From a virus: a stretch of 64,000 nucleotides of DNA. Each line of letters begins with the position of its first letter. Within the stretch, counting starts at the first letter, position 1. The notes under the pieces are model-generated. The model made no database searches. It was not told where the DNA came from and saw nothing but the letters and a program-made list of their open reading frames with translations. Below, piece by piece: positions 9,205-64,000 of this stretch. Where the stretch lies: the IMG/VR virus record IMGVR_UViG_3300028569_000021, positions 29,778 through 93,777 of that record. The stretch is one strand, 5' to 3'. The position numbers and the translations under genes are program-made.

Positions 9205-9238
9205 ACAAATATTATATACTAAACCATAAATAATTCAA

Positions 9239-29718: not shown

Positions 29719-29722
29719 ATTT

Positions 29723-29812
29723 GGAACGATGGCTGAGCGGCCGAAGGCAGAGCTTTGCTAAAGCTCCGAGGACTAAAAACCTCCGAAGGTTCAAATCCTT
29801 CTCGTTCCGCCA
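29723..29812 (+). tRNA. tRNA-Ser(GCT)
   Basis: Acceptor GGAACGA/TCGTTCC-G-CCA; anticodon arm GAGCT-TTGCTAA-AGCTC; long variable arm; GTTCAAATC T loop. Confidence 0.93.
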
Positions 29813-43510: not shown

Positions 43511-44152
43511 TTAAGCGCCAAAAATATCACTTATACCAGTCTTTATAGCATTCAATGCTCCTTGTATTGAGTCAGAGCTTGACTCAACATCACTACCCCC
43601 GGGGGTAGTACTTGAACCTACCCCGTCAATAGCTGCTTCTGGTTCTTCTTGTTCTTCAGGTGAACCTTGAGTAGAAGGTGGCGCAACTGAACCATCACCC
43701 ATAACTTTTTGCTTTCCACTATACTCTGCTACATTACCTGTATAATCAAAATGATGTCTCTCGTTAGTAGAATTTAATTGTTTAAACCCATATTTACCGC
43801 CGTTTTTTACAAACCACTCCCAAGACTCATCTTTAGTTAAATCAATAGATAATCCAAACCCGTGATTAGATCTACCAGGTCTAGCAGCTTGACCAGCTCC
43901 ATACTGTCTAAAAATCATATTCTGCTGGTCAATATTACGATACGAACTATTAGGGCCTGCTAGTGTTAGGGGTTTACCTACACTAGCCTGGCAATCTCTT
44001 TGAGCTCTTTCGAAAGCTGCAGCTGCAGAACCAACTAACTTATTACCCTGCCTATCAATAGGTCTCATTAAATTGTCAGGTACTTGACCGTTAACAATTT
44101 TATTTGAATCTAGTTGAGTAACTTCGTTTAAAAAGGCCTTAAAGGTAATCAC
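43511..44152 (-). CDS. M15B (VanY-like) D,D-peptidase with capsid-targeting-like leader
   Basis: SSYR..DQQ, AARPGRSNHGFGLSID, ERHHFDY; MITFKAFLNE leader. Confidence 0.85.
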   Translation of the reverse strand: MITFKAFLNEVTQLDSNKIVNGQVPDNLMRPIDRQGNKLVGSAAAAFERAQRDCQASVGKPLTLAGPNSSYRNIDQQNMIFRQYGAGQAARPGRSNHGFGLSIDLTKDESWEWFVKNGGKYGFKQLNSTNERHHFDYTGNVAEYSGKQKVMGDGSVAPPSTQGSPEEQEEPEAAIDGVGSSTTPGGSDVESSSDSIQGALNAIKTGISDIFGA

Positions 44153-48696: not shown

Positions 48697-48963
48697 ATGC
48701 TTAATTTTAATAACTTAGTTTCTAACCTTATTGAAGGTTGCAATGTAGAGGCTAATGAACTAAAAAAGGGTGATACAGTTAAAGATATTAACCCATCTTG
48801 TAAAGAGCGTAATGCCAAAGGTAAGGTAAAGAGTGTTAAAAAGATAAAGGACGGTAAAAGGACAGCAGGTAATTTAGTTGAGATAGAAGTAAAAAATAAA
48901 GGTAAACACTTTAAGCCAGGCGATAAAATTAAAAAAACGGAAATCCAGCTTAAGAAACTTTAA
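48697..48963 (+). CDS. small basic late protein
   Basis: TAAATA-N5-ATG; leader MLNFNNLVSNLIE. Confidence 0.65.
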   Translation: MLNFNNLVSNLIEGCNVEANELKKGDTVKDINPSCKERNAKGKVKSVKKIKDGKRTAGNLVEIEVKNKGKHFKPGDKIKKTEIQLKKL

Positions 48964-49894
48964 TTACTTTAGGTGATTTAACTCTCTTCTTATAAACAGC
49001 CAATACTCTGATACCAGGTAAGTCAGTATCGAGGTTACGTCTAGAATCGTTTCTTATTAAAATATAGACTTGTTTTTCATCTGTAATGTCATTCAAGTTT
49101 TCAATAATACTAGAACAGTTGACAGTTAAAGTATTTGTAGCGTCATCAAATTCAAAGTCAGAGTCTTTAAAGGTTTTTGTTATAATAGCGCTATCTCCTT
49201 CTTTTAGATCATTCCCAAAAATAAATTTCTGACTTTCTTCTGGTGTGGCTTTTTTAGCAATGCTAGCAGAAAGTTTAAAGTGTCCTTGTTTTTTTATTAA
49301 CTTAACTTTATCCTTGGCTATTAAGTCCTTTATTATTTTACCAGCTTCTTTTAAATGAGTCTTGTCTGCAGAGCTCCAGTGTTCAGCACTATCCTCTTTA
49401 ATAGATATCTTATATTTTTTATTTCCTTTAAGAACAACATCAGCCTTATCTCCTTTTTTTGATGTGCGACCTGTTTCTATCGCTTCCTTTACGTTTTCAC
49501 ATTTAAATTCTTTTTTATTGCTTTTAAATATAATGGTTATATTTTCTTGCATTTGATTTATATACTGATTAATTGTCTCTAGTAACTTAAGCTCATTGCT
49601 TACTCCGGCGGAGCTACTACCTTGTTTTGATTTAGGTTTAACAATAATTTTATAATTAGGACTTATCTCTATATGTCCCATAGATGAATGATTGGTAGCG
49701 TCAGATTTGATAGGATTAAATTCAGCTAAACTATCAAGAAGCCTATCCATTACCTCTTGTCTATTATCGTCAGTTAATACAGCTATCTTGATTAGAGAAA
49801 TAACTTTTAAATCATTATATCCTATTTGTCTTAAGGTATCTTCAAGATTAACAATCTGCTGTTCTAAAATTAAAAACTTAGTAAAAGATACCAT
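48950..49894 (-). CDS. late protein, possible PD-(D/E)xK nuclease fold
   Basis: NE...KADVVL...ISIK pattern; MVSFTKFLILE leader; TATAAATA-N6-ATG. Confidence 0.5.
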   Translation of the reverse strand: MVSFTKFLILEQQIVNLEDTLRQIGYNDLKVISLIKIAVLTDDNRQEVMDRLLDSLAEFNPIKSDATNHSSMGHIEISPNYKIIVKPKSKQGSSSAGVSNELKLLETINQYINQMQENITIIFKSNKKEFKCENVKEAIETGRTSKKGDKADVVLKGNKKYKISIKEDSAEHWSSADKTHLKEAGKIIKDLIAKDKVKLIKKQGHFKLSASIAKKATPEESQKFIFGNDLKEGDSAIITKTFKDSDFEFDDATNTLTVNCSSIIENLNDITDEKQVYILIRNDSRRNLDTDLPGIRVLAVYKKRVKSPKVIKVS

Positions 49895-49903
49895 ATTTAT
49901 TAT

Positions 49904-51529
49904 TTATAATTCATCAAGCAAGTCATCAAAGGTAGATACTACGCTTTTATCCATATCTTGTGTATATATTTCTTTTTGCTTATATTTTTTAATAGCATCC
50001 ATAGTGATATTATCATCAGATGGTAAAACATATTGTTTAGCATTTGGTAACCCCTTTAAAGATTTTACCGGGTTATCTGTAAAAGAAAAATAATTACCTG
50101 CATCTTTTAAAGATCCTTCAAAATTTTCTAAATTATTATAACTAACGTTTACGTGATCTTTTACCTTTTCCGGAAAATTATTTAAGCTTGTTAAATCTAA
50201 AAATCTTAACTCTAATATATCCATCTCTTTAGGTAAACCTACAACACTATTGACATGTACGTTATAAATTTCTAAAGATCTTAATTTTGGAGGTAAGAAT
50301 GTTAAATCTTGAATTACTCTTTTTGATTTACTAGCAGCCGTGTGTTGAATAGTCCAATTTGAGTCTTTCTTAGGTTGAATACATAAATAGTGTACCGTGT
50401 CCGGAATGTTAATATTAGTAATAATAGAATTATAACTATTATTTAAATGATATTTATATTTAGCGCTAGGATGGGAAAAATCGCAGTCTTTAAACCATTT
50501 TTCGTTAATATCGCTTACGTTGACCTCGTTATGTGCATATTTAAAGTTATTCTTTATTTCTATGCTTGGGTTAATAATCTTAAACAACTTTTCTGGGGTA
50601 GGGTTGTTTATTATATCAATTATTTCACTTGTATATTTAATAATAGAAGCTTCTGATAAATTTTTAGGTGTTAGGGTTAAGAACTTGGGAGTAAAAACTG
50701 CACCTAAAGTATTAGCTGTATCATCATAATTTATTATTCCTGTAACTTCTTCATACATATAATTTTTGTATGGAAAATAGATTGCATAAGGAGAAACGGC
50801 ATTATTATAAAATAGACTGTTTTGTAAATTACTAGGCTTAAAAGCTTCTGTGTAAGTTAAATTTTTAAGTTTTTTAGTTATAGAGTTATTAAATCTTACA
50901 ATTATATAATTAGTTTTTATTAAATTAATTACTTCTGGGTCCTGTTGGTCTAATAAATCTGGTATATGACTTATTTTTAACCCGACCATATTTGGTGTCA
51001 TATCCTTAATAGGTTTTACTGCTAAGACGGTTGTTGTTACTTTACCATCTTTTGTAAAGAGTTGTAATGGTGTAGGTAACCAATTAAAACCGAGTGGTGA
51101 ATCGCAGAAGACATCTACAATCCTTTTTTCCATTCTTTCATTATTTTGTAGAGGTCCATCGTACGAGTCCTTGCTTCCTGGTTTTACTAAATCAGCCGCA
51201 TTAATAGTAAGGTTAGGATCTTTACTATATTTTTCTGCTACTTTAACATCTTTAAAGGGCCCATAAAGAAAGTGACCATGAATACCGTGTATACTTTTAT
51301 CAGAAAAGAACTCTACAGCAAACTTGGAATAAGATCCAGGTATATTCTTATACGCAACTACTCTACCGATTTGGTTTATGTAAGGTAGAGTTTTTTTAGG
51401 TTGATATACGAGCCATTTACCGTTATCTCTTACAACTACAATATCGTCTATTTGAAATTTTGCGCGCAGAGGTGAGTCATAAAAATCTTTATAAACAGAT
51501 TCAATAAAAAAATCTTTAAATATTTGCAT
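49904..51529 (-). CDS. large leader-bearing protein with degenerate LRR-like C-terminal region and the conserved C-terminal tag
   Basis: MQIFKDFFIE leader; LTSLNNFP/VKSLKGLP repeats; ends VVSTFDDLLDEL. Confidence 0.7.
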   Translation of the reverse strand: MQIFKDFFIESVYKDFYDSPLRAKFQIDDIVVVRDNGKWLVYQPKKTLPYINQIGRVVAYKNIPGSYSKFAVEFFSDKSIHGIHGHFLYGPFKDVKVAEKYSKDPNLTINAADLVKPGSKDSYDGPLQNNERMEKRIVDVFCDSPLGFNWLPTPLQLFTKDGKVTTTVLAVKPIKDMTPNMVGLKISHIPDLLDQQDPEVINLIKTNYIIVRFNNSITKKLKNLTYTEAFKPSNLQNSLFYNNAVSPYAIYFPYKNYMYEEVTGIINYDDTANTLGAVFTPKFLTLTPKNLSEASIIKYTSEIIDIINNPTPEKLFKIINPSIEIKNNFKYAHNEVNVSDINEKWFKDCDFSHPSAKYKYHLNNSYNSIITNINIPDTVHYLCIQPKKDSNWTIQHTAASKSKRVIQDLTFLPPKLRSLEIYNVHVNSVVGLPKEMDILELRFLDLTSLNNFPEKVKDHVNVSYNNLENFEGSLKDAGNYFSFTDNPVKSLKGLPNAKQYVLPSDDNITMDAIKKYKQKEIYTQDMDKSVVSTFDDLLDEL

Positions 51530-51556
51530 GTTTGATAAGTATTTAAGTAATTAATT

Positions 51557-53050
51557 ATGTATTTAAAGCAAGAAGAGTCAAATATTTTTTCACGCTATGT
51601 CTCGTTATTAAAAGAACAGAATGCAGCTCCACCTGCTGATGAATCTAATAAACTAGAGGACCCAGAATATTTTAGAATGTTTGAGAATAGATTATTGGCT
51701 AGTATCAATCATCTTTATAAAAATCATAGATTTTATGGCATAACATTGAGAAAGTTAAAGACAGTACCGACTTTAACTGTGCCTACCATGGCTGTAGATG
51801 ATTATAATAATATATTCATTAACCCTAATTTCCTTATAGATGAGTTATCTATAGAAGAAGCGGCAGGTGTATTGGCTCATGAATGCTTGCATATAATAGG
51901 TAAGCATCTGTTTAGACTTGGTAATAGAGATATGTCCTTATGGAACTGGGCTACTGATTTTATTATTAATATGAACTGCTTGCAGGATGGAATGGCTCTT
52001 CCTAAGTTAGGTCTCATACCTCAACAAGACCCTAGTGGTAGGTGGCACGCTAAGGTAAAGGGTAAGAAGGGTGATCTAGATATTGATATTACAGATTTAA
52101 TTCCAGAAGAACTTTACGATATATTAAATGCTAATGCTGAAAAGATAGACCAAAATGGTATGAATCAACAGCAACAGGAGATGGACGAACATATTAATGA
52201 TCAAACAGGAAGACCTCAAATACCTAACAATGCAAGTGATAACGATAGCTATAAAGCAGATGGTCCTAGTGGTGGAGGTAAGTCTAAATCGGCCGGTGAA
52301 AAAGAAGCCCAAGCAGAAGATATAAAAAAGAAATCAATAGGAGAAACTAAAAAGGATCAAAGTAGAGGAATGGGTGGAAGTTTACCTAGAATGATTTCTA
52401 AAGAAGAAGAGACTCCTAGAGTTAATTGGAGACAAATTTTAAAAAGATATTTAAAGGTAAGTGCCTCATCTTATGAAACTTACATGAGACCTAGTAGAAG
52501 AGGTTTAGCGAGAGGAATAATTCAAAAAGGAGAAAGAAGTATTCCTGATAAAGTTGATGTAGTAGTGGCTTGTGATACTAGTGGCTCTATAACTCCTGAA
52601 ATTTTGAATCTTTATACAACAGAAATTATGTCAATTTCTAAAGCGTATAAAAGCGTTTCTATTCTTTTAATTCTATGGACAACAGAAGTTTATTTTGCTG
52701 CAAAAATAGAAAAAGGTACTATAGAACCTATCTATTCTGCTGTAGCGGGTAAAAAAGAAAATATAAATAATAAAACAATAACAATTGCTAATATACCCTA
52801 TAAAGGAGGTGGTACAATATTATCTAGCGTTCATAAGTGGTTTAATGACAACCGTGCGATTGCGGTAACTAAAGCAAAATTATTAATAGTATTTACTGAC
52901 GGTCATGTTGAAGACCAACCTGTATTTCCTAAGCAATTTAATAAGAGGAATACAATTTTTATGGTTAATGATCCTCAATCTGGTGGTATAGATGATATAG
53001 TTAAAAAATATGGTACTGCCATTTATGTAAAAGTTGGTAAATACACATAA
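51557..53050 (+). CDS. DUF2201-type zincin metallopeptidase + VWA domain protein
   Basis: PTMAVD, LAHECLH (HExxH), WNWATD..IN; MIDAS DTSGS, GGGT, FTDG. Confidence 0.88.
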   Translation: MYLKQEESNIFSRYVSLLKEQNAAPPADESNKLEDPEYFRMFENRLLASINHLYKNHRFYGITLRKLKTVPTLTVPTMAVDDYNNIFINPNFLIDELSIEEAAGVLAHECLHIIGKHLFRLGNRDMSLWNWATDFIINMNCLQDGMALPKLGLIPQQDPSGRWHAKVKGKKGDLDIDITDLIPEELYDILNANAEKIDQNGMNQQQQEMDEHINDQTGRPQIPNNASDNDSYKADGPSGGGKSKSAGEKEAQAEDIKKKSIGETKKDQSRGMGGSLPRMISKEEETPRVNWRQILKRYLKVSASSYETYMRPSRRGLARGIIQKGERSIPDKVDVVVACDTSGSITPEILNLYTTEIMSISKAYKSVSILLILWTTEVYFAAKIEKGTIEPIYSAVAGKKENINNKTITIANIPYKGGGTILSSVHKWFNDNRAIAVTKAKLLIVFTDGHVEDQPVFPKQFNKRNTIFMVNDPQSGGIDDIVKKYGTAIYVKVGKYT

Positions 53051-53059
53051 ATAAAAAGT

Positions 53060-54682
53060 ATGAAGTTTTTTAACTCTAGTAAAGATGATTTGTTTGATGC
53101 CTATAAGAGTGTTTATATAAAAGAAGCTGTTAACCCTAAGCCAGCACTGCAAAGTGTTCAACCAAAAAAGAAAGCTCCTGCAGTTATAGCGCCTGCACCA
53201 GTTCCTTTCTCTGGTGGTAAAGTAGGTAAACCAGCACAGCAACCTCAAGCTGCAGATGAGATACCATCTGATCCAACACCTGATATAGAAGCAGAAGATA
53301 TTATTAATAAAGCTGCTCCTATGGTTAATGCTATTAATCAAGGTGAAGATTTAGACCTAGAAGACATTTTAAATCAAACAGGTGGCGTTGATGACGTCAA
53401 TTTACCTACTTACAAAGATACAGATTTACCTGAATGGGACTATGAAGATGTAGAACCATTAGTACAAAGATCTTACGACCTTAAAGAACCAATTTTGATA
53501 TATGGTTCTGCTGGTATTGGTAAATCTACTATAATTGAAGATTTTGGTAGAGACATTGCTGCTGCTTCTACAGGTAGAATTTATAAGAACTGGGATGATA
53601 CATCATATCAGGAAAAAGAAGAGATGATGTATCATCCAGAAAAGTACTTTGGAATGGTTAAGATTCTGCCTAACAAGTATACTCCAGAAGATATTCTCGG
53701 TGTACCTAAAGTAATGAATCAAAAAGAATGGCTTGTTACAGATAAATTTATGTGGATTGAATATTTGTCGCGTCCAGGTGCTGCTGGTATTCTATTCCTT
53801 GACGAGCTCAATACTGCTTCAGCGAGAATGCTTTATAGTTTATATGAAGTGGTTCTAGATAAAGCAGCTGCGGGTACGAAATTTGCTCCTGATGTTGCAA
53901 TTATGGCTGCAGGTAACTTAGAAAACGAGCTTAACCCAAACTTAGAGCCACTACCCCAACCTTTAGTAGATAGATTTACAAGCGGTGTGTTAGTAGCTGA
54001 CGTTGACAAATGGGTTGAGTTAGCTAAAAAATGGAAAGTTGATAGAAGAATATTGACGTTTGTTCTTTCTAATCCTAAAGATAATTTTTATGCTGAGCCA
54101 ATTACCGGTGGTGGTGGATCTCCAACACCTAGATCATTAGTGAAGTTTTCTAATATGCTTAAGCATATATATAAAGATTATAGTGATAAGATTAAATCAG
54201 GTGCACTTATTAAGAAACCTATTCTCAGACAAATTGGTAAAGCAGCTGCAGGTAAACTGGGTACTAAATGGGCTAAAAACTTTGTTGAATTTTTAGCTTA
54301 TAGTAGATCATTTAATTTTGCAGACCTCATTAAGGACGCAGCAAATCTTAATAAGAGAAAGAAAGCCGAGATTAGCGCCTTACAATTGTATTTGCTAGGT
54401 AGAGCAGAATGGGCCACAAAACAATTAATAGGCGTCCCGCAAGAAGCCATTAACGATCCTAATGTTAAGGAAGTTATGGAAGGTATTCTTACTGTCTCAA
54501 ATGCTCTTGACAATAATTGGAATATTAACTTATGGGTAATGTTCAAGAAGGATATGGCACCTGAACTGTTTAAATCATTAATGGTATATACTGTTCAAGG
54601 CGATTATAACCCTACAGTGAAAGCTGCAATGGTTGTAAAGATGAAGAAAATTGGTAAAATCTTAAAAGGAGAAACAGAATGA
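53060..54682 (+). CDS. MoxR-like AAA+ ATPase with long N-terminal extension
   Basis: GSAGIGKS, DILGVP, ILFLDELN, AAGN, PLVDRF, PTPRS; adjacent to the VWA partner. Confidence 0.9.
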   Translation: MKFFNSSKDDLFDAYKSVYIKEAVNPKPALQSVQPKKKAPAVIAPAPVPFSGGKVGKPAQQPQAADEIPSDPTPDIEAEDIINKAAPMVNAINQGEDLDLEDILNQTGGVDDVNLPTYKDTDLPEWDYEDVEPLVQRSYDLKEPILIYGSAGIGKSTIIEDFGRDIAAASTGRIYKNWDDTSYQEKEEMMYHPEKYFGMVKILPNKYTPEDILGVPKVMNQKEWLVTDKFMWIEYLSRPGAAGILFLDELNTASARMLYSLYEVVLDKAAAGTKFAPDVAIMAAGNLENELNPNLEPLPQPLVDRFTSGVLVADVDKWVELAKKWKVDRRILTFVLSNPKDNFYAEPITGGGGSPTPRSLVKFSNMLKHIYKDYSDKIKSGALIKKPILRQIGKAAAGKLGTKWAKNFVEFLAYSRSFNFADLIKDAANLNKRKKAEISALQLYLLGRAEWATKQLIGVPQEAINDPNVKEVMEGILTVSNALDNNWNINLWVMFKKDMAPELFKSLMVYTVQGDYNPTVKAAMVVKMKKIGKILKGETE

Positions 54683-55173
54683 CAAAACAAATTAAAGAAG
54701 CAAAGAAATTAGCAGCAGATTATTTTTATAGAAAAAGAAAGTTAACAGAAAAGGAAAGATTCCTTGTAGAGAGCTCTCCCTTTGGATATGTTCTTAAACC
54801 TGCTGAAACTGCTACAAAATTTAATAAAATTTTAGAACAGTATGGTATGGACAATGGTGTAATTGATCTTATGGATGTACCGGAAGGTCTTCCTAGAAGA
54901 AAGCCAAACTATACACCCTGGATTAAAAAGCATTACGTTAAAGAATTGCTTGATCAAATTGAAGAAAAATTTAACGTTGGTATGTATAATGTAGGGGTGG
55001 GTAAATATAAAAATATCGATTGTGATATTTTAAAGCAATTTATACATAATTTTGTTGTAAGAAATAGAATACAAAGCGGTAGCCAAGATACAGCAGAAGA
55101 GCTTTTAGACATTGCTAATAACTGCGGTGACGTTTACAAAGTAATGTATAAGCTTTATTTTCTAGCAAAATAA
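54679..55173 (+). CDS. hypothetical protein coupled to the AAA+ gene
   Basis: ATGA overlap. Confidence 0.65.
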   Translation: MTKQIKEAKKLAADYFYRKRKLTEKERFLVESSPFGYVLKPAETATKFNKILEQYGMDNGVIDLMDVPEGLPRRKPNYTPWIKKHYVKELLDQIEEKFNVGMYNVGVGKYKNIDCDILKQFIHNFVVRNRIQSGSQDTAEELLDIANNCGDVYKVMYKLYFLAK

Positions 55174-55179
55174 AGCAAA

Positions 55180-55707
55180 ATGCGAGAGCTGATAGATAAG
55201 TTAGTAAGTGATATTGTTTTAAATAAAAAAGAACAATCTTTTGTTAAGACTATGGCTTCAAGTCTTGTTAAAACAAAGCTTTTAAATAATAGTCATTTTT
55301 ATGAAACTTTGTTTTTAATTAAAAGATTCTTTAATGCACCTAAAGTTGGTATTAGAGTTGTAGATGACCTACAGTGGGTAAGAATGGGCCCTGAGTGTAA
55401 GTCAATATTTGAAAAATATAATTATAAGTATCATTATCGTTATGATGGAGAGTCAATGGAAGACATATTTGCCATATTTAAAAAGTTTTGTATTAACCAT
55501 GGAGCAGATATAAAAGCAGGTATAAGTCCTGAAAACGATAAAAAATTACAAATTCCTTTACAGATGGCAGAAGAGCTTTTTAATCTTGCTTTTAGAGAGA
55601 CTCTTGCTAGACACAAAAATGATCCTACAATTAAAGAATACTTAATAATGAGAGATATACCTGAAGATGTGGATGATGTTTTCGGGGATTTAACTTCTGC
55701 GTTATAA
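55180..55707 (+). CDS. hypothetical protein with C-terminal tag
   Basis: Ends EDVDDVFGDLTSAL. Confidence 0.7.
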   Translation: MRELIDKLVSDIVLNKKEQSFVKTMASSLVKTKLLNNSHFYETLFLIKRFFNAPKVGIRVVDDLQWVRMGPECKSIFEKYNYKYHYRYDGESMEDIFAIFKKFCINHGADIKAGISPENDKKLQIPLQMAEELFNLAFRETLARHKNDPTIKEYLIMRDIPEDVDDVFGDLTSAL

Positions 55708-55839
55708 TTTTTTTTCTTTTTTAACTTCTTTTATTAATGTAGTACATTCTAATAAAAGTCTATCTAGCTCCATACATTCCTCAAATGTTGGTTCTTCTAT
55801 TAACATTAACTCATCTATTTTTTTAATCTTTTCTTCCAT
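55702..55839 (-). CDS. 45-aa hypothetical protein missing from the ORF track
   Basis: Hand translation MEEKIKKIDELMLIEEP...; fills the gap. Confidence 0.4.
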   Translation of the reverse strand: MEEKIKKIDELMLIEEPTFEECMELDRLLLECTTLIKEVKKEKKL

Positions 55840-56110
55840 TGTCTTTATTCCTATACCAAAAATATAAAAGAACTCCAGATGTAATAATACCTGTAACGTA
55901 ATTCATGACCCACCACAAACCAAATACGTTATGGTACATATAAAGTAAACCAAATATATATCCAGACATAGATAGTATAATCATCAGTGGAGACAAATCA
56001 GAAGAGCTTTTAGTTTTAATAATCTTTATAATTTGAGGTAAAAAGCATGACATAAATGATAGAGTCATTAATATTCCGCACACCTCTCTTAGTATATCTT
56101 TTGTTGTCAT
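55823..56110 (-). CDS. PQ-loop/SemiSWEET-like membrane protein
   Basis: FLPQIIKIIKTKSSSDLS; three TM helices in 95 aa. Confidence 0.8.
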   Translation of the reverse strand: MTTKDILREVCGILMTLSFMSCFLPQIIKIIKTKSSSDLSPLMIILSMSGYIFGLLYMYHNVFGLWWVMNYVTGIITSGVLLYFWYRNKDNGRKD

Positions 56111-56370
56111 CCGTTAATAAGTTGAGTGTTTGTTGTCAATTTAAGATATCCATCAACAAGAGAAGTGTTGTTATATATTTGAGATTCCTTTTCTACTACT
56201 CCTATATACTTATTATAGGGCAACCTAAAGCCGCAACAAAGAAGAAAATTTTCAAAACCTCTGCACATTTCTTCTATATTACCACAATCTGTATTGATTG
56301 TATAATTAATCTTTGAGTCTGTACCGTGAGTAGTTTTATAACTAAAAGTTATAGTAGTAAGCTTTTCCAT
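56107..56370 (-). CDS. hypothetical protein
   Basis: TTGATT-N16-TATAAT-N6-ATG fixes the start; FENFLLCCGF motif. Confidence 0.65.
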   Translation of the reverse strand: MEKLTTITFSYKTTHGTDSKINYTINTDCGNIEEMCRGFENFLLCCGFRLPYNKYIGVVEKESQIYNNTSLVDGYLKLTTNTQLING

Positions 56371-56411
56371 AACTATATTATACAATACCTAAACAACTAA
56401 TCAAGATATAA

Positions 56412-56936
56412 TTAAAGTTCATTTAAGATATCTCTAAATGTATTAGAAACTTCTTTATCTGCTTTATCTAGACCATAAACTTCATTCTCTCTATATTTTT
56501 TATAAGCAATAACATCTTTCTCCACTACATGACCTGGTGTAAAATAATATACAGTATCTAGAAGTACTTTTTGTATTTTAAGTTTTACTTTTTTAATAGC
56601 ATTTTCTTCGTTTTCTTCATCAATATTTTGCTGATTTGATAACTCATCATTTAGGATACTATTAATTGTATAATTAAGAGAGCGTACATGTGTAAAGATA
56701 TTAACAAATGTATCTAGCATCTTACCTCTACCGTGTAAAACAGGTTTAAGTATTTCGACAACAAGACGAATAATAACTAAATTAATTTCTTGCAATAGTC
56801 TTGGCCTATCATTATTCATTTTATTATATATTACTATACATTCTTTTGCAGATTTTGTTATTATGTCATCCTCTCTTTGGGTGAGAGTCTCTCTAATATT
56901 ATTCTCTAATAAGTACCTGACCTTCTGATAAAACAT
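56412..56936 (-). CDS. leader- and C-tag-bearing hypothetical protein
   Basis: MFYQKVRYLLE leader; ends EVSNTFRDILNEL; TAAATA-N6-ATG. Confidence 0.75.
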   Translation of the reverse strand: MFYQKVRYLLENNIRETLTQREDDIITKSAKECIVIYNKMNNDRPRLLQEINLVIIRLVVEILKPVLHGRGKMLDTFVNIFTHVRSLNYTINSILNDELSNQQNIDEENEENAIKKVKLKIQKVLLDTVYYFTPGHVVEKDVIAYKKYRENEVYGLDKADKEVSNTFRDILNEL

Positions 56937-56947
56937 TAAAAGTATTT

Positions 56948-56968
56948 AATAGCTGTAAGCCACTCGTC
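56948..56968 (+). repeat. 21-nt direct repeat, left copy
   Basis: AATAGCTGTAAGCCACTCGTC; matches 59517-59537 at 20/21. Confidence 0.8.
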
Positions 56969-57015
56969 AGCTGTTTTTTTAACATAAATAAATTAAAAGA
57001 ATAAAGATGTTCTAA

Positions 57016-57078
57016 TGTATTGTTTGGCGTGATCAAAAAGCATCAGATACCTTTGGAGATTTGTATAATGAATTATGA
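57016..57078 (+). pseudogene. orphan 3' remnant encoding only the C-terminal tag
   Basis: ...WRDQKASDTFGDLYNEL* after an in-frame stop; TGA overlaps the ATG at 57075. Confidence 0.65.
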
Positions 57079-57515
57079 TAAAGAGAAGCTTTAAAAAATA
57101 CATGACAGAAAACGGACCGGAAGTTATAGAAAAGAATTTCTATATTGAAGGTGAGGAAGATCCTACCTTGCAATATATTATAAGAGTACCTCTAAAAGTA
57201 AAAGAAGATGGACAGATAGAAGTTTTAGATAACCTGCGCAGGAGGACGGAAATTTTTTATCTCAAAACAACAAAGGATGTAAAGAGTACGAAAGATACAA
57301 GTTATAAGACTGTATATAATATAGGATATTTAAATTATACATTTAAAAAAGGCATTTCGATAGGACAAAACTATGATAGGTATAATCTAAGGCCTGTAAT
57401 AGACTTTTTCTTTAAACTTGCGCCTACAGCTGTGAGAGAGTATAATACAGATATTATATTTGCTTCAGAAAAAGAAACACAAGATATTTTTGGAGATTTA
57501 TTTAACGAAGTATGA
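57075..57515 (+). CDS. array member 1, leader + variable core + C-tag
   Basis: MIKRSFKKYMTE; ends ETQDIFGDLFNEV. Confidence 0.75.
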   Translation: MIKRSFKKYMTENGPEVIEKNFYIEGEEDPTLQYIIRVPLKVKEDGQIEVLDNLRRRTEIFYLKTTKDVKSTKDTSYKTVYNIGYLNYTFKKGISIGQNYDRYNLRPVIDFFFKLAPTAVREYNTDIIFASEKETQDIFGDLFNEV

Positions 57516-57982
57516 AACCGTTTAAAACATTTATATTGGAAAATAAAAAAACTAGCTCTCTTGAGATAATGAGCAAGAATTTTTATGTCGGTGATGATGA
57601 ACCTAATCTTCAATACCATATCGAATTAAGCTCTATTCATAATTTTGTAATATATGTACCTCTGATAGTTAATGATAAAGAAAATATATCTGTTAAGACG
57701 AGCCTTAGTAATAGTATCGATTTTTGGTATAGGTTGCCAAGTCAACAGGGACCTAATGATGCATTAAGATGGAAAATATATGCTCGTGGTAAAAAAGATC
57801 TTAAAAGCCTTATATATTATACAAATAGTGGGGTAACATTAAATAAAAAAGAGAAGGAAATATTATCTAATTTTTATAAAGATATAATTGATGGTAATAT
57901 TAAAGAGTATAATGATAAGATTAACTTTGGAGATGATGAGGATGTAAAAAATACGTTTGGAGATATTTACAATGAACTTTGA
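57512..57982 (+). CDS. array member 2; N-terminal core related to member 1
   Basis: MKPFKTFILE; KNFYVGDDEPNLQY versus KNFYIEGEEDPTLQY; ends DVKNTFGDIYNEL. Confidence 0.75.
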   Translation: MKPFKTFILENKKTSSLEIMSKNFYVGDDEPNLQYHIELSSIHNFVIYVPLIVNDKENISVKTSLSNSIDFWYRLPSQQGPNDALRWKIYARGKKDLKSLIYYTNSGVTLNKKEKEILSNFYKDIIDGNIKEYNDKINFGDDEDVKNTFGDIYNEL

Positions 57983-58439
57983 TAAATTAATAGATATAAT
58001 ATTAGAAAATAATAGAGGTTATGTAATAATAAATAAAGAGTTAATTGCTAACAATTGGGATAAATATGACGATCCTCAAATTAGATTTGAGCTAGAGATA
58101 GATGGAGTATACCACGAGTGTTATTTTCCTTTAGATTATAAAGATGTAAAGTTTAATACCTTAAAAGTAGAAACAAAAAAGTGGGATTTTGCGTTATGGC
58201 GAAAAGATAAAATAACTAAAAAAGTTAACTTGATAGGTAGTATCGTTAAGCCATCAGAGGATAAAGAAGAGATGATGCTTAAATTAGCTAAAAGTAAACT
58301 TGATAAAAAGCACAAAGAAATAATGGCAGATTTATTAGATATAGCGTTTCAAATGCTGGAAGACCATAATAACGAGCAAATGACAAATGGTAAAAGTGAA
58401 GTATATGATGTGTTTAAGGATACATTTGATGAATTATAA
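57972..58439 (+). CDS. array member 3
   Basis: MNFDKLIDIILE; ends EVYDVFKDTFDEL. Confidence 0.75.
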   Translation: MNFDKLIDIILENNRGYVIINKELIANNWDKYDDPQIRFELEIDGVYHECYFPLDYKDVKFNTLKVETKKWDFALWRKDKITKKVNLIGSIVKPSEDKEEMMLKLAKSKLDKKHKEIMADLLDIAFQMLEDHNNEQMTNGKSEVYDVFKDTFDEL

Positions 58440-58441
58440 TT

Positions 58442-58927
58442 ATGTTTTATAAAAAAATAAATAGTATATTAGAGGAAGCTGCTACAAGGCCTCCTTTTGA
58501 AATGTTATTGGAAGGTAAGACGGTACAGGAGAACTATACAGCTATATCACCATTAGATTACTCTGATGTGGTAATAAGAGTAAGACACGGTGATGAGCGT
58601 AAATTAATGTTCTTTGAAAGATATAAAGTCACCAGCGATAAGAAGGAAAACTTAAAGTATATTAAAGATGAGTTAGTACCTAAGTTACCAGAAGGTGTTG
58701 ATGCACAGTGGGAAAAACATTACTTAGTTTACGGAATGGAAATAATGGTCAGGTATAGTGTATACAATGATGATGGGTTTTATCAAAGATGTGTATATAT
58801 AGTAAAGTATCCTAAGACTTGGAGTTCAGAATTATGGAAGGATGACCTCTTTGAAGCTTACTTGAAACCTACAAACTTAACAGGTGATGTTAAGGATGTA
58901 TTTGGAGATGTATATGGTGAACTTTAA
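58442..58927 (+). CDS. array member 4
   Basis: MFYKKINSILEE; ends DVKDVFGDVYGEL. Confidence 0.75.
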   Translation: MFYKKINSILEEAATRPPFEMLLEGKTVQENYTAISPLDYSDVVIRVRHGDERKLMFFERYKVTSDKKENLKYIKDELVPKLPEGVDAQWEKHYLVYGMEIMVRYSVYNDDGFYQRCVYIVKYPKTWSSELWKDDLFEAYLKPTNLTGDVKDVFGDVYGEL

Positions 58928-59402
58928 TAAAACCGTAAAGTATATATTAGAGGAAGCTGCTACAAGGCCTCCTTTTGAAATGTTATCGGAATTAAACTAT
59001 TCTAGTATTTTACTACTACAAAATAAACAGCATTATATAGGAAGAAATGCGTTTGGAAAAGTTTTTGATATTAAAAAAGGTAAGTTGTTTTATGGGCCTA
59101 GATCTAGAGCTAATGGCATGATACTCATTAAAGGACGTAATGAATGGATAAAAAATATTAAAAAGAACTGGCGTAAGGGACATATTGTAGGGGGAGGTGA
59201 ACTAAGAAGATACTTAGATTCTGCGTCTAGAGAAAAAGTTATAAATGATGATGATATAAAATATGTTGTTAACGATTTAAGTATACTTCCTAAGTTTACA
59301 ACACTATTTACTGGTAAGTTAGTTTATCTTGAACCAACAGATTGGGAACAAGCACCACAAGAAGTAAAGAATGTATTTACGGATATGTTCGAAGAGATGT
59401 AA
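58914..59402 (+). CDS. array member 5
   Basis: MVNFNKTVKYILEE; ends EVKNVFTDMFEEM. Confidence 0.75.
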   Translation: MVNFNKTVKYILEEAATRPPFEMLSELNYSSILLLQNKQHYIGRNAFGKVFDIKKGKLFYGPRSRANGMILIKGRNEWIKNIKKNWRKGHIVGGGELRRYLDSASREKVINDDDIKYVVNDLSILPKFTTLFTGKLVYLEPTDWEQAPQEVKNVFTDMFEEM

Positions 59403-59516
59403 ATACTAATATGACTTTTGATGAAGAGTTAATTGTATAAAAGAGAAGCAACAAGAAGAGCATAAGTTCATTCTTATTGACCCATCAGAATATCAAACAG
59501 CAATAATTTATTCTTA

Positions 59517-59537
59517 AATAGCTGTAAGCCCCTCGTC
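59517..59537 (+). repeat. 21-nt direct repeat, right copy
   Basis: AATAGCTGTAAGCCCCTCGTC. Confidence 0.8.
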
Positions 59538-59947: not shown

Positions 59948-60137
59948 GACTTTATTTATCCTTTTTTGTATAATTTAAAACGAAAAAAACGCGCAAAAAA
60001 AATTTTTCCAAATGGCGAATTCTAGAAACCAAAAATCGCGTAAAAATTCGGAAGCATGGGTATACCTTACTAAAAAAGTTCTATATATACATCACAAATT
60101 CCCGTACTGTGTTCTAATAGAACGTTGTCTAATAGAG

Positions 60138-60179
60138 AGAGGTGGTAGAGAGAGACACCACTAACTCTCTACCACCTCT
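60138..60179. repeat. perfect 15-bp inverted repeat with 12-nt loop
   Basis: AGAGGTGGTAGAGAG / CTCTCTACCACCTCT. Confidence 0.85.
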
Positions 60180-60199
60180 ATTGTATCTGATCTAAGCTG

Positions 60200-60352
60200 T
60201 TAGATCTCTTCGTCTTCCTCTACATCATACACCTCTGGTGTGTTGTCGAGTTGTTGCAACGTGTTGAGTTCGTCTTGTTCTTGTGTGCTAAGTACACCCT
60301 TGTCTTGCTTACTAACTAGTTCGTACATACGAGCTTCTTGTTCTGTTGTCAA
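60200..60352 (-). CDS. 50-aa acidic hypothetical protein missing from the ORF track
   Basis: TTG start overlapping the upstream TGA; MTTEQEARMYELV...EEDEEI. Confidence 0.55.
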   Translation of the reverse strand: MTTEQEARMYELVSKQDKGVLSTQEQDELNTLQQLDNTPEVYDVEEDEEI

Positions 60353-60657
60353 TATAAACACCCCCTTGTCTTGTCCTCGAGACCGAGTAGCCGAGATACC
60401 ATATCTACTGCTCCCCTATCCCTTCCACCAATGTGCCAATCATATGACTCCATTGGCGTGCTTGTTGTCTTCCAATCATATATAGTTGCTACTACATTGT
60501 TGGGAAATTCTATATGCCATTCACACGTGACCTTACCATCACCACTACGACCTACAATGGGCTCTCCTAGCTTCTCCACCAGGTAGTCGTATGTTGTTGT
60601 GATAAATCCTTTAAGGGATGTACCGTTTGTCATTATTGTATTAGTATTGATCTTCAT
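60349..60657 (-). CDS. small early phage protein
   Basis: GTSLKG...LGEP...DGKVTCEW...ATIYDWK...WHIGG pattern. Confidence 0.75.
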   Translation of the reverse strand: MKINTNTIMTNGTSLKGFITTTYDYLVEKLGEPIVGRSGDGKVTCEWHIEFPNNVVATIYDWKTTSTPMESYDWHIGGRDRGAVDMVSRLLGLEDKTRGCLY

Positions 60658-61079
60658 TTGATTGTGATGATGTATGGATACTCTTGCATGAATGGATTGA
60701 GTACCTTATTGCCTTTGAGTGTGACACTATATGTCTTACCTACCTCGAGTTTACTATACAGCTCGTCGCTGTTGAAGATCTGAATAGGTAGTACGAAGTT
60801 CTGTACCTCATACACTCCCTTATCAGTCCCTACCATGTAGTCATGCTTATCTACATAGAGTCTCTGTACAGTGATCTGTTCGTCTCGCTCTGGTCCGAAC
60901 CCATCCGTACCTGTAACGAAGTTGATACCAGTGATGATAGCCAGTACAGCTACAACGAAGATCAACGGACCAACTAAGGCTGTAGTGACCGTCGCCAGAA
61001 TACTATCAGTGATATAGTCAATCATACGATCGAATGCTTTGTTTAGTTTGTACTTCATTGTGGTGTTCTTATTTTTCAT
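60654..61079 (-). CDS. membrane-anchored protein, DUF1523-like
   Basis: TM segment then YMVGTDKGVYE...FNSDELY..LEVGKTY...YPYII; promoter at N6. Confidence 0.6.
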   Translation of the reverse strand: MKNKNTTMKYKLNKAFDRMIDYITDSILATVTTALVGPLIFVVAVLAIITGINFVTGTDGFGPERDEQITVQRLYVDKHDYMVGTDKGVYEVQNFVLPIQIFNSDELYSKLEVGKTYSVTLKGNKVLNPFMQEYPYIITIK

Positions 61080-61121
61080 ACTATCAGTATAGCTGCTCAT
61101 TGAAGGAAGGTCAACGGTTTT

Positions 61122-61304
61122 TCAGTCGAATGAATACATCCTTGCATCTTTATCAGCTGCAGCATAGTTTTTTGCTAGTGCCTCAGCGCTCTCCTTGGTT
61201 GCTTGTCCCTCCGAGATTTGCATCCATTGGCCTTTACCAATATACCCGACAACAAAATATAAAGGACACTTGACAGACTTTTTAACGACCTTGTAGTTCT
61301 TCAT
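61122..61304 (-). CDS. small early hypothetical protein
   Basis: ATG 10 nt after the -10 box. Confidence 0.65.
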   Translation of the reverse strand: MKNYKVVKKSVKCPLYFVVGYIGKGQWMQISEGQATKESAEALAKNYAAADKDARMYSFD

Positions 61305-61420
61305 TACAGTATTGATATTAGTGTGTGTTGGTGGACAGTTCAAGCTTGAAGTTGTACAATAAATCCACCAACACTAGAACTCAAAGGATTACCCGAAGAC
61401 AACGTGAATCTGACTTCATG

Positions 61421-61636
61421 TTACCAGACAGAATTCATAGCGTCAGCCTGCTGATCAGCCCACACTTCAGCCGTATCTTGGAAGTGTTTAAGTGCCTTCT
61501 CTTTGGACTCCCCATCTTGGATATGCTTCATGATATCTTTAATTGTCCAGCATTCAACAATCACATCCCAGCCGCCATCGTTGTAATGTTCTTGGGCGTA
61601 GTTGTAAATGTATTGAGCAATTTTTTCTTTGTTCAT
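61421..61636 (-). CDS. small early hypothetical protein
   Basis: YA.EHYNDGGWDVIVECW; ATG 10 nt after the -10 box. Confidence 0.7.
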   Translation of the reverse strand: MNKEKIAQYIYNYAQEHYNDGGWDVIVECWTIKDIMKHIQDGESKEKALKHFQDTAEVWADQQADAMNSVW

Positions 61637-61671
61637 AACAGATAAGAGTGTAGAGGTTTTGGGTGGACAGG

Positions 61672-61866
61672 TCAACCTCTTTGCTGGAGGACCTTGAACT
61701 CCTTATCAAGGTCCTCCAGCTCCTTCTCCAGTCCCACTAGCTCGGCAAGCAAAGCATTCAGTCGGGCGTTCTTCGGATCGTACATATCCAGAAGAGTATC
61801 CTGATGCTTCTTCACCTGTTCGGTTGCGCCGCCGAGTTCTGCACGTTGTATGTAAATATTATTCAT
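61672..61866 (-). CDS. small early coiled-coil protein
   Basis: ORF track; degenerate promoter repeat upstream. Confidence 0.6.
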   Translation of the reverse strand: MNNIYIQRAELGGATEQVKKHQDTLLDMYDPKNARLNALLAELVGLEKELEDLDKEFKVLQQRG

Positions 61867-61990
61867 TGTGTGTATTGTGGCTGCTCTGAGGAGGAACTAC
61901 CAGCTGATTCTTCGATTGTTCTATAAGCTTGACTGTCCAGCTCGGCTAGCCAATCATCATAGCCGGGCCAGACCTCTTGATCGTCGCTAT

Positions 61991-62176
61991 TCATAGATTG
62001 AATTTTAATTTGATATCCTGAATCAATTGCTGTAGCCAGGCAAGTGCAACGAGTGCAAATAATACGAACGGTACGAACGATTCATTGAGCTTACTCCCTC
62101 TCCGGTCGATAGCTTCTATTAACCGGTCGATAGCTGCTAGCAAACGATCAAGAGTTGATAGCCTTGTTTGTCTCAT
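61991..62176 (-). CDS. small early membrane protein
   Basis: One TM segment FVPFVLFALVALAWL. Confidence 0.55.
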   Translation of the reverse strand: MRQTRLSTLDRLLAAIDRLIEAIDRRGSKLNESFVPFVLFALVALAWLQQLIQDIKLKFNL

Positions 62177-62296
62177 TAGTTTCTATAGCGAAGTAATTGA
62201 TTTGTTTTTTATAATTTAAACGTTCTTCTTATATGATGTACCTATTATAATGACGGAACTACTAGAGGAGTGTAACTATTAGAGGTTTGTCTCTCA

Positions 62297-62509
62297 TTAG
62301 ACCGCGCATGCGTAGTGCACATCTATCACCATATCGAATGAACCATGCTGCTTATAGAGGCTGACCATCTCGTGATTTACATCCGAGCTCCCTACCTCCT
62401 CCGCTCCGTTCTCGATTAGACTGTCTGCAGCTGCGCGACGCATAAGGTGCCGTTCGACAAATGGGAGGCTCTTATACTCCTCCATGATTTCGTGGAATGT
62501 TTTTTTCAT
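62297..62509 (-). CDS. small early hypothetical protein
   Basis: ORF track. Confidence 0.6.
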   Translation of the reverse strand: MKKTFHEIMEEYKSLPFVERHLMRRAAADSLIENGAEEVGSSDVNHEMVSLYKQHGSFDMVIDVHYACAV

Positions 62510-62611
62510 ATAATTAGCGCTTTTTGATACCGACTTTGATTCGTTTAGTTGTTGCGTAGAAGTAGATGTTTTTCATTACAGGTAAGATGATATAGGAACT
62601 AGTGGAGGAAC

Positions 62612-62854
62612 TCAAGCTGGAAATGCTGGATATTGCCAATATTGGGTGTTGAAGGAGGTCACGTAATGTTCGCCAGTACTATGAGGCATACCCGAGAACA
62701 CCTCTTCACCGGTCTCATCATCCTTGACGATCACGAGGTCATCGGCACGGCCTTTCACAATGTACTTGACTCGCCGGGCTTCTTTGACGAGACTCTTGAA
62801 GTGTGCTGAAGTTATAACGCGGACGAATGATTTGATTTGTGTTGGTGTGTTCAT
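62612..62854 (-). CDS. small early hypothetical protein
   Basis: ORF track; partial promoter repeat upstream. Confidence 0.65.
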   Translation of the reverse strand: MNTPTQIKSFVRVITSAHFKSLVKEARRVKYIVKGRADDLVIVKDDETGEEVFSGMPHSTGEHYVTSFNTQYWQYPAFPA

Positions 62855-62929
62855 TACAGGATTGATATTAGTGTGTGTTGGTATTCATTACAGATAAGAC
62901 TATAGAGATTTCAGTTGGACAGCTCAAGA

Positions 62930-63178
62930 TTATTCTTCATCATCTTCATCTTCTTCAAGATCATCAAGAGCTTCTTGATATGCTTCAAGCACATCATTCA
63001 CTCTATCTACTTTACATGCAATACCATCCTCAAGAAAGATGATATCCCAATTGTCATCACCAATAATCTCTCCAACTATATCGAGATCAACACCTTCTGG
63101 TGCTTTTAAGAAGACTACATCAGCGTGAATGTGAACTTGTTCAATTTTCATTTTGTTTGATTTGGATTTGTTTTTCAT
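62930..63178 (-). CDS. small, very acidic early protein
   Basis: Ends DDLEEDEDDEE; ATG 10 nt after the -10 box. Confidence 0.65.
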   Translation of the reverse strand: MKNKSKSNKMKIEQVHIHADVVFLKAPEGVDLDIVGEIIGDDNWDIIFLEDGIACKVDRVNDVLEAYQEALDDLEEDEDDEE

Positions 63179-63218
63179 TACAGATAAGAGTATAGAAGTT
63201 TTGATAGGACAGTTCAAG

Positions 63219-63258
63219 AAAAAAGAGTCTCTCTAACCTCTTCAGTCAGAGAGACTCT
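63219..63258 (-). terminator. intrinsic terminator abutting the next promoter
   Basis: AGAGTCTCTCT...AGAGAGACTCT hairpin, then a T-run leading into TTGAAC on the minus strand. Confidence 0.7.
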
Positions 63259-63273
63259 ATAACTCTTTGTGAA

Positions 63274-63537
63274 TTAATCACATAAACAATTTTGAGCCCA
63301 CTCTCTTACTTCTGTCATCCAACTCTCGTAAGTACAAGACTTTACATCCATATCTGTAAAGTCTTGTGGACCATATCGTTCTTCATACTCTTTTAAACTC
63401 ATTGCAAAGAAAGGAGTATCAAACATTACTTCAGTTAAGTTTGTATCTTCTTTATCTAAAAGAGTTTGCAAATGTTGCTCGTCTTTTACGTCAGTTAAGT
63501 TAACAATTGTTTCTGCTTCGTTGTCTAGTATTTTCAT
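63274..63537 (-). CDS. small acidic early protein
   Basis: ORF track; own promoter. Confidence 0.65.
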   Translation of the reverse strand: MKILDNEAETIVNLTDVKDEQHLQTLLDKEDTNLTEVMFDTPFFAMSLKEYEERYGPQDFTDMDVKSCTYESWMTEVREWAQNCLCD

Positions 63538-63643
63538 TAGATTTATATATTAGGTGCTCCGGGGGGAACAATCAAGGAGGAATTTTATATATTGTTTTCT
63601 GCTGTTTGTCCTTGCGGTCCCTTTGGTTTCCGCTAAAACAATA

Positions 63644-63820
63644 TCACTCTGTCATTTTAGATTGTTCTATCGAGCGTTTAAGGTAGGATAGAGTCTGAGT
63701 CTCATTGCTTAGAAGCCGGAGCCCATTAATGGTAGCGGTTAGAAAGCCGATGATGTAATCTTTGGACTCACCTCTCTTCTCCAGGTTTGTCACGATCTGT
63801 TGTGCGTAGTTGGTATTCAT
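63644..63820 (-). CDS. small early hypothetical protein
   Basis: ATG 10 nt after the -10 box. Confidence 0.6.
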   Translation of the reverse strand: MNTNYAQQIVTNLEKRGESKDYIIGFLTATINGLRLLSNETQTLSYLKRSIEQSKMTE

Positions 63821-63859
63821 TACAGATAAGAGTGTAGTGGCTATTGTGAGGAACGTCAA

Positions 63860-64000
63860 TTAGAAATTCATTGCGTCGTCGACAATTTCTGTATCTCCAT
63901 TGCTCATCTTGATAACCACTTGAAGAGATTGATTTGGTTTTTCATCCCCAAACCATTTCTCGACAAAGCTAAAGTCATCTGCATCAAGAAGCATCATAGT
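63860..64000 (-). CDS. 3' part of a small early protein, truncated at the window edge
   Basis: Open frame ...MLLDADDFSFVEKWFG...DDAMNF*; stop abuts the next -35 box. Confidence 0.5.
   Translation of the reverse strand, partial: TMMLLDADDFSFVEKWFGDEKPNQSLQVVIKMSNGDTEIVDDAMNF

Follow-up and report, generated by a model that had tools for sequence, protein, structure and literature searches.

A lineage-specific C-terminal tail on unlike late proteins of a T4-like phage and its link to a MoxR/peptidase-VWA module

Why should a phage end proteins of quite different build with the same short peptide? The question is raised by 64,000 nucleotides of viral DNA (positions 29,778 to 93,777 of the IMG/VR record IMGVR_UViG_3300028569_000021), a stretch called the window here, in which eight open reading frames (ORFs), labeled T1 to T8, share an acidic C-terminal tail. 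These ORFs lie around three genes. One encodes a fusion of a zinc-metallopeptidase with a VWA domain, the next a MoxR-type AAA+ ATPase, and the third, 3′ of the ATPase gene, a small helical protein labeled X. The window is the final 64 kb of a 93,777-base contig (CheckV completeness 44%) from an uncultured, T4-like, lytic phage. The tail is a portable, selected, lineage-specific tag that is linked to one clade of the MoxR/peptidase-VWA/X module, and it is probably an address label. Taken whole, the best explanation is that the tail addresses fast-evolving late proteins to a common partner, probably one from the adjacent module; we hold this account tentatively, at a little less than an even chance.

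Each of the eight ORFs (window 49904-59402) has ..[ED][VT]xx[TVI]FxDhhx[EA][LVM] as its exact ending, and the positions and end peptides listed for them in the original prediction were all confirmed (Table 1). A core regular expression, [TVIL]F.D[ILVMT]xx[EDA][LVM], was run over all stop-to-stop frames of the contig and matched these eight, every one of them at its last residue, together with one stray match internal to a 62-codon frame. At the 1143 frame ends, the background rate would give about 0.006 matches by chance. A more permissive pattern, which required an aromatic residue at -8 and hydrophobic residues at -5, -4, and -1, returned the same eight only, among ORFs of at least 50 amino acids (aa), and the motif occurs in no further gene of this incomplete, 93.8-kb contig. 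A decayed tail stub at 57037-57078, immediately before the gene for protein T4, is a sign of gene turnover in the array.

Does the conserved signal reside in the DNA or in the peptide? A DNA-level signal in the tail codons, such as ribosome binding or translational coupling, was considered and rejected. T1, T2, and T3 are carriers without a coupled downstream gene and have kept the tail, while the terminal hydrophobic residue is encoded variously by TTA, CTT, GTA, or ATG and the codons at conserved positions differ too; the constraint therefore acts on the peptide. Alignment of the last 40 residues showed that the shared ending is the last part of a module of about 30 residues and two helices, with a weakly conserved h-K-[EK]-Y helix, a short linker, and a terminal ..[LM]-[DS]-x-E-[TV]-x-x-x-[FW]-x-D-h-h-x-E-L. 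The net charge of the last 16 residues runs from -2 to -5.

The bodies in front of this module are of several kinds. T1 has an architecture (SH3/KOW-like barrel, middle domain, and a region resembling leucine-rich repeats, or LRRs) that differs from that of the small proteins. Its AlphaFold model (mean predicted local distance difference test, or pLDDT, of 82) places the helices of the tail module at residues 510-523, 528-533, and 535-540, where the pLDDT is 76-90, and Foldseek returned weak matches to PetP, YorP, and KOW barrels and to the LRRs of IpaH and CroV. The last 31 aa of T3 align with the end of T1. When both ends were removed, BLASTP clustered only the T1 family and joined no pair of small proteins at an E-value of 1e-3. 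PHROGs held no family for any tailed protein, except for a marginal match to T1; a search of 5.8 billion proteins with T5 found close orthologues only (74-92% identity), and in the ESM Atlas T5 had a low-confidence model and no usable neighbours. Beyond the window, an NT5C-type 5′-deoxynucleotidase of 319 aa in a relative (L003, 1598-2557; Pfam 9e-7) has a C-terminal extension that ends in the tail ..TKNTFKGLIDII. The tail is thus present on at least three unlike kinds of protein, namely T1, the small proteins, and the NT5C enzyme of a relative. The idea that the cores are mostly unrelated stands for these three kinds and fails within the small carriers, where T4/T5/T6 and T7/T8 are distant paralogues. 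All of the cores belonging to one homologous fold, which would make the tail a matter of ordinary paralogy, was checked as well and does not hold.

The behaviour of the tail across phages was followed in loci from IMG/VR and metagenomes (L and G numbers here) that were found with a profile of the ATPase homologues, and arrays were detected in them by de novo clustering of C-terminal decapeptides. Lineage-specific versions of the tail, or "dialects," were found in this way. Seven array genes of L001/L011 end in ..ETxxAWxxVxxEL and five of L015 in ..AKEAWGVDTFADL, while ..DxEA[IL]xNL arrays comprise three genes in L014, nine in L016, and seven in L021. The dialect of this window, ..ETxx[FW]xDhhxEL, is helical, aromatic-acidic, and longer than the PE type, ..LPELEGIF, and the two are interchangeable on the T1 family. 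T1 had 315 relatives in a library of 1.84 billion representative proteins, and among the best 150 of these, 33 have aromatic-acidic ends, 17 have ..[RK]LPEL[ED]G[IM]F (as in ..LPELEGIF), and one has ..DDFDALIGL. The module is also present in G002 (ATPase 32% identical), where at least five genes at the contig end terminate in ..KLPE[IL]xxIF. Within one phage, then, unlike proteins bear one tail, and across phages one protein family bears a tail that changes by lineage. A dialect shared within a phage and switched on T1 across lineages is what a co-evolving common partner would predict. Together with the unlike carriers, the different tails of a single family also bear out the earlier proposal of a shared handle rather than ordinary paralogy. 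Two further ORFs were noted in L011: one of 133 aa (9023-9424) bears a tail-like motif, ..DPEVKDAWGDII.., immediately behind its N-terminal leader and not at its end, and its neighbour (8280-8675) ends in ..EVTRHFDSIIDNLL, an F-type tail in a phage with a W-type array.

The AAA+/VWA-peptidase pair that had been placed beside the tailed genes was upheld by Pfam matches, motifs, and ATPase homologues. The peptidase domain matches DUF2201_N (PF13203) with 98.5 bits against a cut-off of 23.2, and the VWA part is borderline for DUF2201 (PF09967; 26.3 bits against 26.4). Residues H108/E109/H112, D340-x-S342-G-S344, and T447-D448-G449 are invariant in nine lineages; the catalytic motifs of the VWA-peptidase are intact, and on these motifs the module looks active. 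The ATPase has a weak AAA_5 match (19 bits, cut-off 22) and Walker A and Walker B motifs that were read from the sequence, and its homologues (38-42% identity) carry PF07728, annotated as MoxR-like ATPase. Homologues of X were found in seven further loci. Its AlphaFold model is all-helical, in two halves, with a pLDDT of 73; fold searches with X gave nothing significant in PDB or BFVD, and no longer or fused forms of it were found.

Table 1. Tailed proteins, module genes, and tail relic in the window.
Feature	Length (aa)	Window position	Strand	Description
T1	541	49904-51529	-	Leader MQIFKDFFIE; SH3/KOW-like barrel, middle alpha/beta domain, LRR-like C-terminal region; tail ..STFDDLLDEL
VWA-peptidase	497	51557-53050	+	Zinc-metallopeptidase (HExxH) fused to VWA with a metal ion-dependent adhesion site (MIDAS); from Pfam and invariant motifs
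ATPase	540	53060-54682	+	MoxR-type AAA+ ATPase; low-complexity N-terminal extension; TAAATA just upstream
X	164	54679-55173	+	Small helical protein; always 3′ of the ATPase in this clade
T2	175	55180-55707	+	Tail ..DDVFGDLTSAL
T3	174	56412-56936	-	Late-promoter-like TAAATA of its own; tail ..SNTFRDILNEL
Tail relic		57037-57078	+	..DTFGDLYNEL-stop, 14 codons after an in-frame TGA; stop overlaps the T4 ATG
T4	146	57075-57515	+	Tail ..QDIFGDLFNEV; first of five genes that overlap tightly; distantly paralogous to T5
T5	156	57512-57982	+	Tail ..KNTFGDIYNEL
T6	155 (from ATG at 57972)	57972-58439	+	Tail ..YDVFKDTFDEL
T7	161	58442-58927	+	Tail ..KDVFGDVYGEL; resembles its paralogue T8 chiefly at both ends
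T8	162 (from ATG at 58914)	58914-59402	+	Tail ..KNVFTDMFEEM

L001/L011, L002, L003, L012, L014, L015, and L109/L112 have the same gene order, VWA-peptidase, ATPase, X. One tailed gene or more lies beside the module in the window (where T1 is transcribed divergently from the VWA-peptidase gene across a gap of 27 bp) and in L001/L011, L003, L014, L015, L016, L021, and L112, the last with a single tailed gene directly after X. The suspected link between the tail and the AAA+/VWA pair is thereby strengthened, as the neighbourhood is conserved in six or more other lineages, each of which has a tail version of its own. Two other genes of the neighbourhood were noted in passing. A semiSWEET-like PQ-loop membrane protein of 95 aa (3.1e-13) is encoded within the tailed-gene array (window 55823-56110, minus strand), and directly downstream of T1 lies the gene for a late protein of 314 aa (window 48950-49894, minus strand) with the leader MVSFTKFLILE and no tail, which belongs to PHROG 12709 (8e-43; function unassigned).

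If the tail is an address, which member of the module might read it? A complex prediction for the VWA-peptidase with the last 40 residues of T5, run without controls, gave scores of 0.00 and 0.01, which count neither for nor against binding. A second approach compared the alignment score per residue between lineage pairs of the same dialect and pairs of different dialects. The ATPase scored 1.55 for same-dialect and 1.46 for different-dialect pairs, and three regions of the VWA-peptidase scored 2.58, 1.46, and 2.08 against 2.16, 1.78, and 1.87, a result called flat; for X, the two values were 1.37 and 0.59. The ATPase of L014 shares 48-50% identity with its L001 and L015 counterparts, yet the X of L014 is among the most dissimilar. 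As X diverges in step with the dialect, it may read the tail or act as an adaptor for it, which is a lead drawn from sequence comparison. Charge complementarity between X and the tail showed no consistent pattern.

Several observations weigh against an address read by the module, and some of them would suit a different account altogether. To begin with the lead on X, its signal comes from only two independent dialect switches (L002 and L014), in a protein that is short and fast-evolving. Moreover, 80 phage loci with distant VWA-peptidases (24-27% identity) showed no local tailed arrays. A further case is G003, a complete genome of 218 kb (CheckV 100%) that has the module and, adjoining it, a tailed T1 homologue of 662 aa. 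A tail profile search of G003 gave 21 further matches, and its ORF maps show about 27 small tailed genes ending in ..TFGGLLDV[LI] in three arrays, at approximately 194-199, 207-211, and 7-10 kb. Most tailed genes of G003 are separated from the module by more than 100 kb, so the tail is not bound to the module's neighbourhood and the neighbourhood link is not a general one. The earlier impression that the motif is found only within about 10 kb is accordingly true of this contig, at its 44% completeness, and the restriction to the pair's surroundings that it implied breaks down in the complete relative. There is also the matter of the very end. Some tails, several of them in G003, run one or two residues past the usual end, and a 292-aa ORF (L008, 4210-5088; G003, approximately 194.2-195.1 kb) has three internal tail copies and a terminal one, about 49 residues apart. 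This ORF could have arisen by fusion of paralogues, or it could encode a polyprotein that is cut behind every tail. Extra end residues and internal copies speak against any strict reading in which a free carboxyl end is recognized. Finally, some of the small carriers are distant paralogues, as described above, and the tail module itself is homologous in all carriers, so that part of the pattern is shared descent.

These last points bring in an explanation that needs no common reader. The tail could serve structure or self-association, for example as a capping helix or a small oligomerisation hairpin, having been inherited by a rapidly diverging multigene family and spread by recombination within hyperplastic arrays; it would then lie near the module only because variable late genes cluster. 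The detectable paralogy and the homologous stretch of about 30 residues fit such an origin, as do the distant arrays of G003 and the array turnover seen in the decayed stub and the fused multi-tail ORFs; in addition, the T1 tail comes after an LRR-like region, a place where capping helices often occur, and its modelled pLDDT is 76-90. What this account handles poorly is that the carriers differ clearly in fold (SH3/LRR, NT5C, and small proteins), that the module has a tailed neighbour in the window and in the relatives named above, and that T1 swaps its dialect by lineage, with one dialect per lineage, which fits a shared partner and not independent caps. We consider it fairly unlikely.

A reader outside of the module was also weighed. 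Degrons of the ssrA type are C-terminal, end in a hydrophobic residue, and act on many unrelated proteins, and the tail, which has the same three properties, could conceivably be a degron by which a host protease (ClpXP, ClpAP, or Lon) times the removal of its carriers. Nevertheless, ssrA-type ends do not share the length, helical form, and acidity of the tail, and the phage's own transfer-messenger RNA (tmRNA) tag ends in ..YELAA and is unrelated to it. Lineage dialects within one phage clade are also easier to reconcile with a phage partner that co-evolves than with a host protease that is conserved, and the degron reading is consequently judged very improbable. Even less probable is mimicry of a replisome hub, by a sliding-clamp-binding motif or an acidic tail of the type found in single-stranded DNA-binding protein (SSB) or gp32, which would bring the carriers to the clamp or to partners of SSB. 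The likeness is a general one, in that the tails are C-terminal and acidic and have a hydrophobic last residue, and the phage's own proteins end in ..CDLFELLS (gp43), ..DNDVFSDT (gp55), and ..LLNGFDDL (gp32); however, the gp43 tail ..TDLF[ED]L.. stays constant over three dialects, the tails of gp55 and gp32 do not follow the tag either, and the tailed genes look late and lie beside the ATPase/VWA set rather than replication genes. A clamp-binding or SSB-type tail was rejected on this independence from dialect. As for gp43 DNA polymerase itself (window 14301-16856, minus strand), its end, ..[CT]DLF[ED]L.., is conserved in three related phages, with L094 and L095 included, and is probably a clamp-binding tail.

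What, then, of the N-termini? Leaders such as MKPFKTFILE resemble the capsid-targeting signal of phage T4, which has about 10 residues and ends in (L/I)-x-E, the site of the prohead protease, and a leader of this kind is present, by inspection, on seven of the eight carriers. A strict leader pattern, which is not a good statistical test of the leaders, gave five where one was expected. The packaging role of the T4 signal has been restated in work on coliphage MoxR and anti-defence. The leader also occurs on the ATPase, the VWA-peptidase, and many untailed proteins of this phage, and it is absent from the tailed arrays of L016 and L021 and from several tailed proteins of G003. Leader and tail are thus separable, and the "two-signal" design first imagined for these proteins is not obligatory. 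Two adjacent cell-wall hydrolases, a glucosaminidase (window 42867-43496, minus strand; Pfam 7.9e-8) and a VanY-type peptidase (43511-44152, minus strand; 4.7e-6), start with T4-like leaders as well (MQSFKQYIYE and MITFKAFLNE) and share a different C-terminal motif, ..AL..IK.G..DIF.. followed by two residues, which may be another tail dialect or an anchoring helix.

Shells of the HK97 fold are known to use C-terminal targeting peptides, and the tail could in principle be a second packaging or anchoring signal that is read by the capsid (major capsid protein, scaffold core, or portal), much like encapsulin cargo peptides, with the ATPase and VWA-peptidase merely packaged or acting as an assembly chaperone. 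The tailed genes do look late, and T1, T3, and the ATPase gene are each preceded by a late-promoter-like TAAATA. The capsid-targeting leader is found on most carriers as well as on the proteins of the module, and G003 encodes a T4-type prohead protease (Peptidase_S77, 5.6e-30), which was not found in this contig at its 44% completeness. A role in virion assembly has also been proposed for the phage MoxR/peptidase-vWA pair (PMC7824862). On the other hand, the presence of the carriers in virions is itself a prediction, tailed arrays without a leader exist in L016 and L021, and a capsid reader would leave the tracking of dialect by X and the constant position of T1 beside the module unexplained. 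On balance, we regard a capsid reader as distinctly unlikely.

Returning to the address-label reading, the mechanism would be as follows. A two-helix module of about 30 residues has been joined to unrelated bodies and is kept by selection on the peptide, and its last acidic amphipathic helix would act as the tag. Fast-evolving late proteins would be marked by it for one common partner, either as clients of that partner or as adaptors that recruit substrates to it. The partner is most probably a member of the adjoining conserved late set of zinc-peptidase-VWA, MoxR AAA+ ATPase, and X. This machine would remodel or cut the tailed proteins using ATP, and each phage lineage has a tail dialect of its own. 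The leader would be a separate, optional signal that probably sends many carriers, and the machine itself, into the prohead. Tail binding, at the VWA MIDAS site or elsewhere, the identity of the binder, the downstream fate of the carriers, and their packaging and injection are all things that we infer. A bolder version can also be formulated, in which a fast-evolving library of LRR-type proteins, small binders, and enzymes is plugged, perhaps via X, into the MoxR/VWA-zinc-peptidase as a tag-addressed processing machine; T4-like lineages would package and inject the set, which would remodel or destroy host targets, for example defence proteins, early in the next infection. This fuller scenario seems unlikely as it stands.

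How does the system compare with those already known? A phage MoxR and metallopeptidase-vWA pair was described in the "group 2.2" jumbo phages by Iyer, Anantharaman, Krishnan, Burroughs, and Aravind in 2021, who proposed a role in virion assembly with peptide processing and did not name clients or tags (PMC7824862). The pair of the window has the same fusion of an HExxH peptidase with VWA beside a MoxR-type ATPase, and differs by a third fixed gene, X, and by tail-marked candidate clients. The VWA-peptidase family is present in 538 GenBank phage records, at approximately 25% identity. V5-like phages have the pair in the opposite order to that seen here, and one V5-like coliphage depends on MoxR, along with a gene of unknown function, to get past a single predicted defence system. 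No obvious shared tail was seen near the module of V5-like coliphages, on a look made for the MoxR anti-defence link only.

In better-studied AAA+/VWA machines, vWA domains have been proposed to capture a substrate peptide that is then remodelled by MoxR (PMC7159879), and the C-terminus of NorD docks on the NorQ ring while a VWA finger enters the pore (PMC13036017). NorQ-NorD, CbbQ-CbbO, and RavA-ViaA likewise combine an AAA+ ring with a VWA partner, but each of them has one client and no peptidase, whereas here many unlike tailed proteins are involved and the contact is predicted only. A further likeness is to the bacterial vWA-MoxR ternary conflict systems, whose peptide-processing types are FxSxx-COOH, RxD, and acidic (Kaur et al. 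2020, PMC7159879). They too have small, fast-diverging proteins with a conserved C-terminal peptide near a zincin peptidase and a vWA-MoxR pair. Those systems, however, are bacterial and have a separate peptidase gene, a radical-SAM (SPASM) partner, and VMAP and AP-ATPase effectors, while in the lytic T4-like phage the peptidase is fused to VWA and the carriers are of 146-541 aa. No radical-SAM/SPASM, VMAP, or AP-ATPase partners were seen among the ORFs of the region, so the tailed genes do not belong with the FxSxx-COOH type. The variable late gene arrays are like those of the internal proteins of phage T4 (IPI-III and Alt). We know of no shared C-terminal tail reported for the T4 internal proteins, nor, to our knowledge, does phage T4 have a MoxR/VWA pair. 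A literature search for shared C-terminal tails on phage proteins found no description of them.

The wider setting is that of a T4-type genome. The contig has a G+C content of about 30% and encodes replication and late-transcription genes of the T4 type (gp41, gp43, gp45, gp32, gp46/47, gp55, UvsX, and UvsW), as well as queuosine-pathway genes, PhoH, and a tmRNA; the last is at window 29278-29812 (ARAGORN tag ..DEYELAA) and is followed by tRNA-Ser(GCU). Among GenBank phages, no close relative of the contig and no DNA match to the tailed-gene region were found; protein searches there with T5 or T1 gave no match, and those with the ATPase gave two weak matches only. Toward the end of the window (60000-64000), the G+C content climbs from about 0.30 to 0.40-0.43, and a 52-nt repeat occurs in six copies (61294-63861), each just upstream of a small minus-strand ORF. 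The repeats resemble a promoter or leader element that recurs across a block of early genes.

Phages have many small, fast-evolving genes of unknown function, and a tail shared within a lineage would sort many of them into one set and name the machine that handles them. If the tag reading is true, the widespread and unexplained phage MoxR/peptidase-VWA pair would also gain concrete clients. Moreover, should the tailed proteins be adaptors or injected effectors, they would represent a new route of counter-defence in phages and a natural, modular tag for protein targeting.

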